From an uncultured Acidobacteriota bacterium (GTDB lineage Bacteria > Acidobacteriota > Terriglobia > Acidiferrales > UBA7541), in NCBI GenBank assembly GCA_963838475.1, contig CAWIRJ010000005.1, forward strand, positions 35,520 through 99,519: DNA of 64,000 bases. Direction: 5' to 3'. A program made the translations under genes and the position numbers. Each line of letters begins with the position of its first letter. Position 1 is the stretch's first letter. Of the stretch, positions 27,204-31,124 are shown one piece after another. The notes beneath the pieces were generated by a model that worked only from the letters and a program-made list of their open reading frames with translations, was not told the DNA's origin and did not search any database.

Positions 27204-28040
27204 ATGCCAGTTGCGGACGTAAAAAATCTCGAAGGCAAGAAAGTCGGCACGATTGAGCTGGCTGACGATGTGTTTGGCGTGAAGGTGAACGCGCACTTGC
27301 TGCATGAAGCGGTGAGGCATCATCTCGCGAGCAAGCATGCCGGAACGCATAAGACGAAAGATAAGAGCGAAGTAAGCGGCGCCGGTCGGAAGCTTTGGAA
27401 GCAGAAAGGAACCGGCCGCGCTCGCGTTGGCTCGATTCGTTCGCCTCTATGGCGTCACGGCGGCACAGTGCACGGTCCAACGCCGCGCAGCTACTCCTAT
27501 GCGCTGCCCAAGAAAATGATTATCGGCGCGCTGCGTTCGGCACTTTCGTCAAAACTGGCTGAACAGAAAATGACGATTGTCGATGCGTGGGAGCTCGAAA
27601 CGCACAAGACCAAAGCGTTCCGTCAAGCGCTGACCAAGCTGGATAAGGAAACGCCTTCGATCCTGTTGGTGGACAACAGTTCGAATGTGAATCTCGAGCG
27701 CGCGAGCCGCAATATCGAGGGGCTCACGCTAGTGCCAACGAATGGTCTGGAAGCATACGATTTGCTGCGACACGATCACTTAATGATGTCGCGTGAAGCA
27801 GCAGTAAAGTTGAGCCGGGCGCTTTCCCCGAATCCGCAGGAGCAGGAAGAGCCGATTCAAATTCAGCCAGCGCCGGGAGCGTCTTCAAGGCAAGCAGTCG
27901 CCGAAAAGACCGAGCACGCAAAACCTGCCGCCAAGGCGCATTCGAAAGTAGAGGCGGCACCGAAAGCTGCCAAGAAGCATGCGGCTGCAAAGAAAGAAAA
28001 GCCGAAAGCAAAGTCCAAGCCCAAGGCGAAAAAGGAATAG
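27204..28040 (+). CDS. rplD: 50S ribosomal protein L4 with ~70-aa Lys/Ala/Pro-rich C-terminal extension
   Basis: L4 core (SGAGRKLWKQKGTGRARVGS) followed by the tail ...KPAAKAHSKVEAAPKAAKKHAAAKKEKPKAKSKPKAKKE. Confidence 0.95.
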   Translation: MPVADVKNLEGKKVGTIELADDVFGVKVNAHLLHEAVRHHLASKHAGTHKTKDKSEVSGAGRKLWKQKGTGRARVGSIRSPLWRHGGTVHGPTPRSYSYALPKKMIIGALRSALSSKLAEQKMTIVDAWELETHKTKAFRQALTKLDKETPSILLVDNSSNVNLERASRNIEGLTLVPTNGLEAYDLLRHDHLMMSREAAVKLSRALSPNPQEQEEPIQIQPAPGASSRQAVAEKTEHAKPAAKAHSKVEAAPKAAKKHAAAKKEKPKAKSKPKAKKE

Positions 28041-28043
28041 GCG

Positions 28044-28340
28044 ATGGATACGAGGCTTTATCAAGTGATCAAGCGGCCCATCATTACGGAAAAGGGTCTT
28101 GGTGTGAAGGAAACCCAGCACACGGTGGTATTCGAAGTCGCGTCGGATGCTACCAAGACAGAGATCAAGGAAGCAGTACAACGAGTTTTTAAAGTAAAAG
28201 TAGATCACGTTCGCACGGCAAATTTTCATGGGAAGTTTCGCCGCCGCGGTCGCGCAGAAGGTTTCCGCAGCGACTGGAAGAAAGCCTACGTGCGTTTGGC
28301 TGAAGGCGAAAAAATGATCGAGTACGCCGACAACATTTAG
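28044..28340 (+). CDS. rplW: 50S ribosomal protein L23
   Basis: YQVIKRPIITEKG...FEVASDATKTEIKEAV. Confidence 0.96.
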   Translation: MDTRLYQVIKRPIITEKGLGVKETQHTVVFEVASDATKTEIKEAVQRVFKVKVDHVRTANFHGKFRRRGRAEGFRSDWKKAYVRLAEGEKMIEYADNI

Positions 28341-28385
28341 TTTCGACAGTTATTGAGCGAGTTCAGGAAATAGCTAGAGGAAGCA

Positions 28386-29207
28386 ATGCCATTAAAAACA
28401 TTTAAACCATACACGCCGGCAAGGCGTTTTCTCACCATGCTCGACAAGAGCGAGGTGACCAAACAGACGCCGGAAAAATCGCTGGTGGAATCCAAGAAGC
28501 GCACTGGCGGCCGCAACGCACAGGGAGAAATCACATCCTGGCACCGCGGTGGTGGACACGCGCGTAAGTATCGCAACATCGATTTTCGGCGTGACAAGAC
28601 GGGCATTCCGGCGAAAGTTGCGTCGATTGAGTACGACCCCAACCGTTCTTCGCGAATTGCTTTACTGCACTATGCGGATGGCGAGAAGCGTTACATTTTG
28701 CAACCGGTTGGTTTGGAAGTTGGTATGACGGTACAGAACGGCGAAGGCGCGGACATTCTGCCGGGCAACGCAATGAAGTTCCGGCACATTCCGCCTGGGA
28801 CCATGGTTCACAACCTCGAGCTTTTTCCGGGCAAAGGCGGCCAGGTGGTTCGCGCCGCGGGCGGTGCAGCGCAGCTTTTGAGCAAAGAAGGCGATCTCGC
28901 GCTGGTGAAATTGCCTTCGGGAGAAGTCCGGCGGTTCAGTGTGGAGTGCATGGCTACCATCGGCCAACTTGGAAATCTGGATCATGAAAACGTGACCTAC
29001 GGAAAAGCGGGCCGCACACGTTGGCACGGCAAGCGTCCCACGGTTCGCGGTGTCGCGATGAACCCGGTAGATCACCCACACGGGGGCGGTGAAGGCCGTG
29101 TGAAAGGTAACCATCCGCAAACTCCTTGGGGTTTTCCGACTCTAGGTGCGAAGACGCGAAAGAAGCGCAAGAGCAGCAGAATGATCGAACAGCGACGTAA
29201 TCCGTAA
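28386..29207 (+). CDS. rplB: 50S ribosomal protein L2
   Basis: GGGHARKYR...[11 protein letters not shown] signature. Confidence 0.97.
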
Positions 29208-29223
29208 GCTAGGGCTGAAACGA

Positions 29224-29574
29224 ATGAACCTGGCGCGGCGAAGAACAGAGAGCAACCTTATGACAGCCACCCGAGCAAATCGGCGTTCAGCACGTCGAAC
29301 AACACGGCGCCCGGCGCGTGCGCGGAAATCAGTCGTGCGGCGTGCAGTGAAGCCAGTGGTAAAAGCAGTTTCCAAGTCGGTGCCAGCTCCGCAAGTGCAA
29401 CTTCGATTGTGCAAGACGGGCTGGGCGGTCATTGTAGAAAAGATTCCAAACGCACAAGGGACTCGTTTCGTGTGTCCCTTCTGTCCGCTATCGCACCGCG
29501 TCTCTGGCCCGGTGCGAGGATTCAAGAAAATGCGCCGCGCGCAGTGGATTAAGCTGCGTCGCGTGGAGGAGTAG
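29224..29574 (+). CDS. Hypothetical small basic protein (Arg-rich tail plus C-x20-C-x2-C-x3-H module) embedded in the S10 operon
   Basis: Same-strand ORF filling the abnormal 375-nt rplB-rpsS gap. Its 3' end (GTGGAGGAGTAG) supplies the rpsS Shine-Dalgarno. Weak own SD (alt ATG 29260). The antisense frame is also open, so coding status is unproven. Confidence 0.45.
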
Positions 29575-29582
29575 TACAACCG

Positions 29583-29936
29583 ATGCCGCGCTCGCTCAAA
29601 AAAGGACCGTTCGTCGACAATCACCTGCGGGTTAAGGTGGAAGCGCTGAACACTCGCAATGAAAAGAAAGTTTTGAAGACGTGGTCGCGCCGTTCGACGA
29701 TTCTGCCGGATATGATCGGCCACACCATCGCCGTTCACAATGGAAAGAAATTTATTCCTGTGTATATCACGGAGCAGATGGTTGGACACAAGCTCGGTGA
29801 ATTTTCGCCGACGCGCACCTTTAAAGGTCACGCGGTAAAAGCAGCGCTCGAAAGGGCTGCTGCGGCGGCTGCTCCCGCAGGAGCGCCAGCGGCAGGAGCC
29901 GCTGGTGGTGGCGCGGCGCCGGGACCAAAGGCATAA
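29583..29936 (+). CDS. rpsS: 30S ribosomal protein S19 with Ala/Gly/Pro-rich C-terminal extension
   Basis: [11 protein letters not shown]...[23 protein letters not shown], then ...[26 protein letters not shown]. Confidence 0.96.
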
Positions 29937-30452
29937 ATGATGGCAACTGCGATTCAAGCTTCAACGCAAATTGAGGGAGTGGCAAAAGCAAGATACATCC
30001 GCGTGTCGCCACAAAAGGCGCGGCTGGTGATTGATTTGATCCGCGGTGTGCGCGCTGAAGAAGCGTTGCACACTCTGCGTTTTACGAAAAAGCGTGTGGC
30101 AAAAGAAATCGAGAAAACGCTACGCAGCGCAATTGCGAATGCCGAACGCAAGGCAGAAGACTCCGGCGAATCGCTGGATGTGGATGCGCTGTTCGTTACT
30201 CGCTGTTACGTGAACGAAGGCCCGCGGTGGAAGCGTATGCGTCCTGCGCCAATGGGGCGCGGGTTCCGATATCAGAAGCGCACTGCACACATTGTTGTGG
30301 AAGTAGCCGAACATCACCGCGCCGCGGCGGACCGCGTTGCAGCCGCCGTTGAGGAAGCGCAAGCTTCCAAGGGCGTCCGCGGAGCAGTTCGGAAGGCTCG
30401 CAAAGCTTTTGAGCAGCGCTCGAAGCAGCAGAAACCGAAAAAGAAGAAGTAG
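29937..30452 (+). CDS. rplV: 50S ribosomal protein L22 with Lys-rich C-terminal extension
   Basis: ARYIRVSPQKARLVIDLIRG core. About 55 extra C-terminal residues ending QQKPKKKK. Confidence 0.95.
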   Translation: MMATAIQASTQIEGVAKARYIRVSPQKARLVIDLIRGVRAEEALHTLRFTKKRVAKEIEKTLRSAIANAERKAEDSGESLDVDALFVTRCYVNEGPRWKRMRPAPMGRGFRYQKRTAHIVVEVAEHHRAAADRVAAAVEEAQASKGVRGAVRKARKAFEQRSKQQKPKKKK

Positions 30453-30461
30453 GAGGATCGT

Positions 30462-31124
30462 TTGGGGCAGAAAACACATCCGTATGGTTTTCGGCTGGGC
30501 TACAACAAGGTTTGGAAGTCGCGCTGGTTCGCCAAGCGCGATTACGCCGACTTGCTGTATGAGGACATCCAGCTGCGCAAGCAGCTAAAGGATCGTCTCA
30601 AATCGGCTGGTATCAGCGGCATCGATGTGGAACGCGCCGCAAACAAGCTAGTAGTTCGGATTTACACTGCGCGTCCCGGAATTATTATCGGCCGTAAGGG
30701 TTCGGAAATCGACAAGCTGAAGAGTGAAGTGCAGAAACGCACCAAGCGCGAAGTGCACATTGACATTCAGGAAGTGCATCGTCCCGAGCTCGATGCTCAG
30801 CTTGTAGCCGAGTCAATTGCTTTGCAGCTTGAAAAGCGGGTGGCCTTCAGACGCGCGATGCGGAAAGCCGTGGATTCGGCACTTCGTTTCGGCTGCAAAG
30901 GCATAAAGGTTCGCGTAGCGGGTCGGTTGAATGGCGCCGAAATCGCGCGAAAAGAATGGTATCTGCAAGGGCGGTTGCCTTTGCAGACTTTGCGCGCGGA
31001 CATTGATTTTGGTACCGCCGAGGCGCACACGACGTACGGAGTGATCGGCGTAAAGTGCTGGATTTATCAGGGCGAAAAAATTCCGCAACGTGGCGGAAAA
31101 ACTGGAACAACCAGCGAAGTTTAG
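30462..31124 (+). CDS. rpsC: 30S ribosomal protein S3
   Basis: [14 protein letters not shown] domain. TTG start after AGGAGG. Confidence 0.96.

Follow-up and report, generated by a model that had tools for sequence, protein, structure and literature searches.

Few features of bacterial genomes are as conserved as the gene order of the S10 operon, and the junction between rplB and rpsS, which encode uL2 and uS19, is among the most invariant junctions. The set of bacterial ribosomal proteins (r-proteins) is considered essentially closed, save for a few tiny lineage-specific peptides. What, then, occupies this junction in Candidatus Acidiferrales? We addressed this question in a stretch of 64,000 nucleotides (nt) of contig CAWIRJ010000005.1 (assembly GCA_963838475.1), hereafter the window, in which rplB (stop at 29207) and rpsS (start at 29583) are separated by 375 nt, a gap occupied by an open reading frame (ORF) that we call X. 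A first-pass annotation made from the letters alone had reported these borders, the gap, the + strand ORF and a second ATG at 29260, and all of them were found on the sequence. We found that X genuinely encodes a protein and is no spacer RNA, and that its sequence family, its predicted fold and its genomic position are new. The gene is certain and its location surprising; as for its function, which we infer, the genomic setting and the predicted protein suggest a role on the ribosome.

The evidence for a protein lies in how codons vary. Across 75 distinct nucleotide sequences of the C-terminal 62-residue module of X, the ratio of nonsynonymous to synonymous substitution rates (dN/dS, Nei-Gojobori) was 0.063 in the ORF frame, compared with 1.3–3.9 in four of the other frames; the fifth, an antisense frame with the same wobble positions, gave 0.15. 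Third codon positions were variable at 60 of 62 sites, with a mean entropy of 1.08 bits, against 0.26 and 0.11 bits at the first and second positions. The same calculation on neighbours in the same loci gave 0.054 for L23, 0.057 for L2 and 0.050 for S19, and purifying selection on the X module is thus comparable to that on these r-proteins. The basic tail that precedes the module, which is harder to align, had a dN/dS of approximately 0.20. The earlier annotation had pointed to stops in the frame of relatives as a sign that the ORF might be spurious; over the last 300 nt, the frame was open in 110 of 111 distinct orthologues, while each of the remaining five frames contained stops in 46–108 of the 111 (41–97%).

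That the region might instead be a structured non-coding spacer or leader RNA with a fortuitous ORF, the alternative put forward at first reading, now has a negligible chance of being correct. Such an RNA would be in keeping with the first 39 nt, which are kept at the nucleotide level, and with the antisense strand, which had also been noted as open and does carry a 271-codon ORF over X and rpsS in the window. Yet antisense frames were interrupted in 46–89 of the 111 orthologues, depending on the frame (41–80%), and the antisense ORF, which is not conserved, is apparently a side effect of GC-rich codon usage. Rfam gave no match near X at E up to 10 (28000–31000) and nothing relevant to the X region at gathering score in the whole window, and RNAalifold on X orthologues proposed three pairs with 0 compensatory changes and no covariation. 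We reject the spacer RNA because of the codon-level evidence (dN/dS, the open frame and the third-position variation); the orthologues comprise 111 distinct sequences and are not assembly artefacts of a single one.

X is also an integral cistron of the S10 operon in Candidatus Acidiferrales and has no transcription signals of its own. On the + strand of the window lies a canonical str-S10-spc-alpha cluster, in which rpmC, Zn-type rpsN, rpmD, infA and rpmJ are each at their customary position and all S10-spc-alpha genes other than X are canonical. No promoter-like or terminator-like site was detected on the + strand within or adjoining X, and no direct repeats were found flanking it; the sole 12-nt inverted pair does not bracket the gene. 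The final X codons, GTG GAG GAG TAG (29563–29574), contain GGAGGAG, the likely Shine-Dalgarno sequence of rpsS, 11–17 nt 5' of the rpsS ATG. A GTGGAGGAG/GTGGAGGAA-type ending followed by a spacer of 5–9 nt to the rpsS ATG was kept in most genome loci, the spacer reaching 19 nt in a few and 81 nt in L081, the most divergent member. This short spacing suggests translational coupling. Gene order was equally constant: each of the 116 orthologous loci examined (80 genome loci, the 2 most divergent and 34 from metagenomes) has rplB on one side of X and rpsS on the other. The first-pass annotation had described X as built into the operon rather than dropped in, with last codons that double as the rpsS Shine-Dalgarno sequence and with neither repeats nor a terminator at its flanks; the sequence, the synteny and our repeat and promoter/terminator scans bear out these points.

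The 5' end of X proved more complex. The 116-codon ORF with an alternative ATG at 29260 had been placed at the right coordinates, but because several subclades lack the first ATG, the predicted start common to all clades is the second one, at 29260 (ATG ACA GCC, 'MTA'). Most orthologues have both ATGs, and those share the peptide MNPARRGIESxxMTATR. The 39 nt between the ATGs and the following codons ATG ACA GCC were kept at the nucleotide level, third positions included, across 45 orthologues, with a leader entropy of 0–0.6 bits compared with 1.08 bits in domain third positions. The conserved stretch spans 29224–29270, with consensus ATGAACCCGGCGCGGCGGGGAATnGAGAG...ATGACAGCCAC, and its synonymous sites are conserved in these orthologues while third positions are saturated elsewhere in X. 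RNAalifold found no conserved secondary structure in the leader, and RNAduplex no consistent pairing partner for it within the X mRNA. The leader may have been conserved as an initiation or standby signal or as a protein-binding site.

The distribution of X points to a single clade. A homologue search of 5.8 billion clustered proteins (E up to 1) returned 1534 clusters. The best 120 of these (E 1e-62 to 4e-38) were all unnamed or 'hypothetical protein', and their named sources were Candidatus Acidiferrales, Acidoferrum or Acidobacteriota metagenome-assembled genomes (MAGs). When one genome for each of 185,579 GTDB species was scanned for the pattern, 542 species genomes proved to encode a relative. 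We compared gene order in the best 80 genome loci from these 542 genomes, and the order L23-L2-X-S19-L22 was invariable where flanks were present; the gap between L2 and S19 was 346–470 nt in all except L066, where it was 263 nt and the L2 reading was disrupted. The two most divergent clean members (56–62% full-length identity) likewise had the gene between L2 and S19.

To delimit the family, we searched metagenome contigs using the S19 of its most divergent member as query, which gave 80 loci, and added L081 and L082. X was present in 36 of these 82 loci, with an rplB-rpsS gap of 346–556 nt and an L2 at least 71% identical to that of the window where at least 255 L2 residues were present. It was absent from 45, in which L2 was at most 67% identical to that of the window and the rplB-rpsS junction measured −1 to 138 nt; one locus was uninformative. 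Searching the longer outgroup spacers (90–138 nt) for a proto-gene revealed neither an ORF nor similarity to X, but AGCT-rich repeats only. An exhaustive hidden Markov model (HMM) search with the X domain profile against 1.84 billion 50%-identity representative proteins returned 25 clusters, of which about five were genuine and the rest frameshifted or chimeric copies of X, several running into S19; no distant relatives were found among these representatives. Insertion by a mobile element found no support: flanking direct repeats were not seen, and no phage record (50,697 searched by tblastn) or plasmid record (72,556) gave a match below E 0.7. X is thus confined to one clade, corresponding to the NCBI order Candidatus Acidiferrales, class Terriglobia. 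Because X occurs in 36 loci of the clade and in none of the 45 outgroup loci, and no distant relatives were found, it is, on the sequences compared, an orphan family with a single apparent gain at the base of Candidatus Acidiferrales, kept at the same spot since. The lineage specificity suspected in the first-pass annotation was thereby upheld, through the homology searches and the survey of rplB-rpsS spacing that it had proposed. The Acidiferrales considered here are an uncultured soil lineage, family UBA7541 (PMC13348298). The Stordalen 'palsa' and SPRUCE sites are represented among the loci.

Several irregularities were observed among these loci. Enlarged rplB-rpsS spacers of 64–138 nt were common in lineages lacking X (L127, L128, L136, L138, L141, L148, L154, L156 and L157), and these, for example L128:2363–2500, contained tandem AGCTnAGAGCT or GCTAGGAGCTAA-like repeats directly 5' of rpsS and no ORF; such repeats may be repeated Shine-Dalgarno-like or regulatory elements. 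Near-identical Acidiferrales-type S10 operons including X occurred under Candidatus Binatus, Dormiibacterota and Binatia MAG names (L003, L037 and L077), which is probably the result of mis-binning. Two MAGs each contained two distinct rplB-X-rpsS contigs (L030 and L032 in CAVWFO01, L026 and L061 in JBEKTG01), suggesting strain or species mixtures in the bins and not operon duplication. Many 'representative' proteins of the family (P0126–P0143) were frameshifted or chimeric gene calls, some continuing from X into S19. Among the best 80 loci, L047 and L057 had a frameshift or a run of N in the N-terminal tail and L066 had its disrupted L2 reading, defects that spare the C-terminal domain of X. 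The disrupted X gene calls are consistent with assembly or long-read errors in a GC-rich, repetitive tail.

The predicted protein has two parts, as the first-pass annotation had described: a basic tail of about 55 amino acids (aa) and a Cys/His module of about 60 aa, both of which were recovered in the alignment and in AlphaFold2 models. X would have a mass of 13.3 kDa in its long form and 11.9 kDa from the second ATG, with an isoelectric point (pI) of 12.0 for both; 28–31 Lys and Arg residues stand against 3–4 Asp and Glu in the two forms. The tail itself holds 15 Lys and Arg and no Asp or Glu. The nearly invariant 62-residue module ends in (R/K)KxRRAQWxKLRRVEE and includes the pattern C-x20-C-x2-C-x3-H, whose residues Cys63, Cys84, Cys87 and His91 were invariant in every alignment made. 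In the full-length AlphaFold2 model (mean predicted local distance difference test score, pLDDT, of 65), the tail was disordered (pLDDT ~50) and the C-terminal domain folded. Structure prediction, which the earlier annotation had suggested as a check, gave a confident model for the domain modelled by itself (residues 50–116), with a mean pLDDT of 88.2 and a predicted template modelling score (pTM) of 0.72. Strands are predicted at residues 57–61, 67–72, 80–83, 90–93 and 97–102 and a short helix at 105–109 (full-length numbering), with Cys63 in the β1-β2 turn, Cys84 and Cys87 (CPFC) in the β3-β4 turn and His91 on β4. In the model, the domain is a five-stranded β-domain whose C...CxxC...H arrangement resembles a zinc ribbon, and it is probably stabilised by Zn2+ on these four residues. 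The motif of the 'zinc knuckle' proposed at first is therefore present and invariant, while the structure around it is better termed a five-stranded, zinc-ribbon-like β-domain.

Searches by sequence and fold, which took in X and, for Pfam, NCBIfam and PADLOC, 45 family members as well, retrieved no known relative. No Pfam-A family scored above its cut-off, the best being DUF7836 (E 0.11, 12.8 bits against a cut-off of 26.7), and NCBIfam and PADLOC gave 0 matches. The sub-threshold Pfam matches over the 45 members were to zinc-ribbon families only (DUF7836, Zn_ribbon_FGT1_1, zf-Sec23_Sec24 and Zn_ribbon_Elf1). Foldseek retrieved no zinc-ribbon structure, and its best matches were not significant (E 2.8 in PDB, with a template modelling (TM) score below 0.37, and E 1.7 in BFVD). 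We also considered whether X could be a duplicate of an r-protein of the cluster, and rejected this: in hhalign comparisons, 29 translation proteins of the window (28 r-proteins and IF1) reached at most 4%, with rplB at 0.2% and rpsS at 0.1%, in agreement with the initial impression that X resembles no universal r-protein. Full-text literature searches turned up no account of a gene at the rplB-rpsS junction or of the X protein.

Judging from this context only, we place about half of our confidence in X being a new lineage-specific ribosomal or stably ribosome-bound protein, and somewhat less in the narrower proposal that it is a bona fide new r-protein with a previously unseen small zinc-binding β-fold, born or diverged beyond recognition at the base of Candidatus Acidiferrales and then fixed within the rplB-rpsS junction. 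With the ribosomal class X shares a co-directional position in an r-protein operon, the lack of signals of its own and constraint like that on core r-proteins, and it has the physico-chemistry of an RNA binder, with a net charge of about +27 and a pI of 12.0. Under this proposal, X (104–116 aa, pI ~12) would be transcribed and translated within the S10 operon and synthesised in roughly ribosomal amounts alongside the r-proteins; the compact five-stranded β-domain, with its putative Zn2+ site, would dock on an rRNA or r-protein surface, and the N-terminal tail, disordered and rich in Arg and Lys, would thread its way along rRNA. A docking domain with an rRNA-threading extension is the architecture of many r-proteins. 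Several observations weigh against a place on the ribosome. Operon membership alone is no proof, as secY, adk, map, infA and rpoA are also found in such clusters, and RNase P subunits are encoded in archaeal S10-like operons. Pfam, NCBIfam, PDB sequences and hhalign revealed no homology of X to any r-protein family, and Foldseek searches of PDB and BFVD with full-length and domain models revealed no ribosomal or other structural relative. No compensating loss or change was found in L2 or S19 between lineages with and without X. Codon usage was uninformative and does not set X apart from non-ribosomal genes: the score was −0.004 for X and +0.007 for its C-terminal domain, values that lie within the ranges, which overlap, of r-protein and other genes in this weakly biased genome.

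Two other roles would account for much of the same evidence. X could be a factor in ribosome biogenesis, or it could autoregulate translation of the distal S10 operon, binding nascent rRNA or its own mRNA near the X and rpsS starts and so tuning the synthesis of S19 and downstream proteins. Presence in an r-protein operon, read as co-expression, and extreme basicity fit this role as well; the nucleotide-conserved 5' region (29224–29262 and ATG ACA GCC) would suit an operator or initiation control, and the Shine-Dalgarno sequence of rpsS is embedded in the last X codons. The leader, however, has neither a conserved RNA structure nor a consistent long-range pairing partner, some 40 residues are nearly invariant throughout the order, as one would expect of a structural component of a ribonucleoprotein (RNP) more than of a regulator, and the known autoregulators of r-protein operons are themselves r-proteins (L4, S8, L1, S4, S7, S15 and L20). 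We therefore regard a biogenesis or regulatory role as unlikely, although it is the alternative that we take most seriously. A little less probable still is that X is a general nucleic-acid binder, acting on the nucleoid, on DNA or in another RNP, that travels as a passenger in a highly expressed operon. S10-spc-alpha clusters are known to include non-ribosomal genes, the AKP/RRA-rich tail can be likened to the histone-H1-like tails of bacterial DNA-binding proteins, and the Foldseek matches included a WRKY DNA-binding domain and Tudor, SH3 and Sm-like small β-barrels. Those matches were all far from significance (E > 1.7, TM below 0.45), and X lies deep in the most conserved r-protein run, unlike secY, adk and map at the operon end, with a spacing to rpsS that suggests translational coupling. 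Moreover, because L4 and L22 of the same genome have similar Lys/Ala/Pro tails, the tail can be read as a habit of r-proteins in this lineage.

An origin by horizontal transfer was weighed as well, in which X would be an acquired and remodelled eL43 (L37ae) of archaeal or eukaryotic type that has lost its second CxxC knuckle; we consider this improbable, well behind the two roles above. The lead came from PDB, where eL43 was the best and the only near-threshold sequence match (E 0.064) over VIKKIEIAQHSKYVCPFC (20 residues), and from hhalign, in which human eL43 reached a probability of 65–68% and an alignment of three eL43 sequences 78%, over 21–23 columns, while the 29 window translation proteins, eS27 and L31 all remained at or below 4% in the same test. 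The eL43 sequences used were verified as members of PF01780, with matches at 2e-45 and 8e-33. The similarity is nevertheless limited to 21–23 residues around one CxxC, Haloarcula eL43 scored only 4.5% and aligned at a different place, and just two of the six PDB matches at E up to 10 were eL43. Pfam Ribosomal_L37ae (PF01780) was unreported at E up to 10 for any of the 45 members, and Foldseek did not retrieve eL43. The matched segment is a strand and a loop in the X model but an α-helix in established eL43 structures, and X has a single CxxC (C84 and C87) with no second knuckle downstream, against the family pattern CxxC-x14-CxxC. The similarity is probably a chance resemblance around the CPFC knuckle.

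Table 1. Coordinates of X, its parts and its neighbours in the window.
Feature	Position	Strand	Evidence or remark
rplD (L4)	27204–28040		278 aa
rplW (L23)	28044–28340	+	Pfam
rplB (uL2), upstream neighbour of X	28386–29207	+	Pfam Ribosomal_L2_N and L2_C, E 3e-53
Antisense ORF over X and rpsS	29142–29957	−	271 codons
ORF X, long form, 116 aa including leader	29224–29574	+	stop TAG at 29572–29574
Leader of X, first to second ATG, optional coding	29224–29262	+	third positions nearly invariant, 45 distinct orthologues
Predicted universal start and basic Arg/Lys/Ala/Pro/Thr-rich tail of variable length, residues 13–54	29260–29385	+	alignment, pLDDT ~50
Conserved C-terminal domain of X, residues 55–116	29386–29571	+	dN/dS 0.063, AlphaFold2
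Cys63	29410–29412	+	putative Zn2+ ligand
Cys84	29473–29475	+	putative Zn2+ ligand
Cys87	29482–29484	+	putative Zn2+ ligand
His91	29494–29496	+	putative Zn2+ ligand
GGAGGAG, likely Shine-Dalgarno sequence of rpsS, within the final X codons	29565–29571	+	sequence
rpsS (uS19), downstream neighbour of X	29583–29936	+	Pfam Ribosomal_S19, E 7e-39
rplV (L22)	29937–30452	+	Pfam
rpsC	30462–31124	+	Pfam

Other r-proteins of the clade also showed particular features. In the window, L4 ends in about 70 aa rich in Lys, Ala and Pro, S19 ends in a tail rich in Ala, Pro and Gly, and L22 has a basic C-terminal extension; the X tail resembles these long low-complexity extensions. A highly conserved loop in the C-terminal region of L2 (window 29050–29140), compared across L083–L162, reads GGGEG(R/K)...(F/A)PTLG in all lineages with X and has a different version in nearly all relatives without it. 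L147, which lacks X, carries the loop of the X-bearing type, and because of this locus the L2 loop change is not strictly linked to X.

Candidatus Acidiferrales are abundant uncultured Acidobacteriota of acidic soils and peat. In X, they have an order-wide, single-locus gene that lacks homologues and fold relatives, evolves under as much constraint as L2 and S19, and can serve as a clean synapomorphy and marker for the clade, even though public annotation calls it only 'hypothetical protein'. If X resides on the ribosome, it would represent a new and sizeable r-protein family and a dated example of recruitment into the ribosome and its core operon, and Candidatus Acidiferrales would be marked by a modified translation apparatus. 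Abundant soil bacteria would then run a structurally distinct ribosome.

Among known systems, the closest in kind are the lineage-specific bacterial r-proteins, namely bTHX (Thermus), bS22 and bL37 (Actinobacteria) and bL38 and bS22 (Bacteroidota). Mentions of bS22 and novel r-proteins can be found in two published studies (PMC10081302, PMC10085706). Like these proteins, X is small, very basic, restricted to one lineage and without homologues elsewhere, and could be a presumed rRNA-binding addition to the universal ribosome. It differs from them in size and setting. They are peptides of 24–60 aa, for the most part without a folded domain, and are encoded outside the S10 operon; X comprises 104–116 aa, with a confidently predicted β-domain that carries a putative metal site, and its gene occupies the rplB-rpsS junction. 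They were found in ribosome structures, while X is known from its gene.

A second comparison is with the zinc-ribbon r-proteins (bL31, bL32, bL33, bL36, Zn-type uS14 and bS18, as well as eL43, eS27, eL37, eL40 and eL42), which X resembles in being small, basic and encoded among r-protein genes and in having a predicted Cys-rich β-hairpin knuckle (CPFC). The zinc-ribbon character of its sub-threshold Pfam matches and the local resemblance to eL43 are further points in common. However, neither its sequence nor its fold gave X a significant match to any of these proteins, and its putative ligands follow C-x20-CxxC-x3-H, with one CxxC and five predicted strands, in place of the two CxxC knuckles and three-stranded ribbon of that class. 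Finally, X can be compared with the passengers of r-protein operons, such as secY, adk, map, infA, rpoA and the archaeal RNase P protein gene Rpp29, which likewise do not encode universal r-proteins and are co-directional in the S10-spc-alpha cluster. Those genes are ancient and widespread, have known functions and occupy other positions, while X belongs to one order and interrupts the rplB-rpsS junction.

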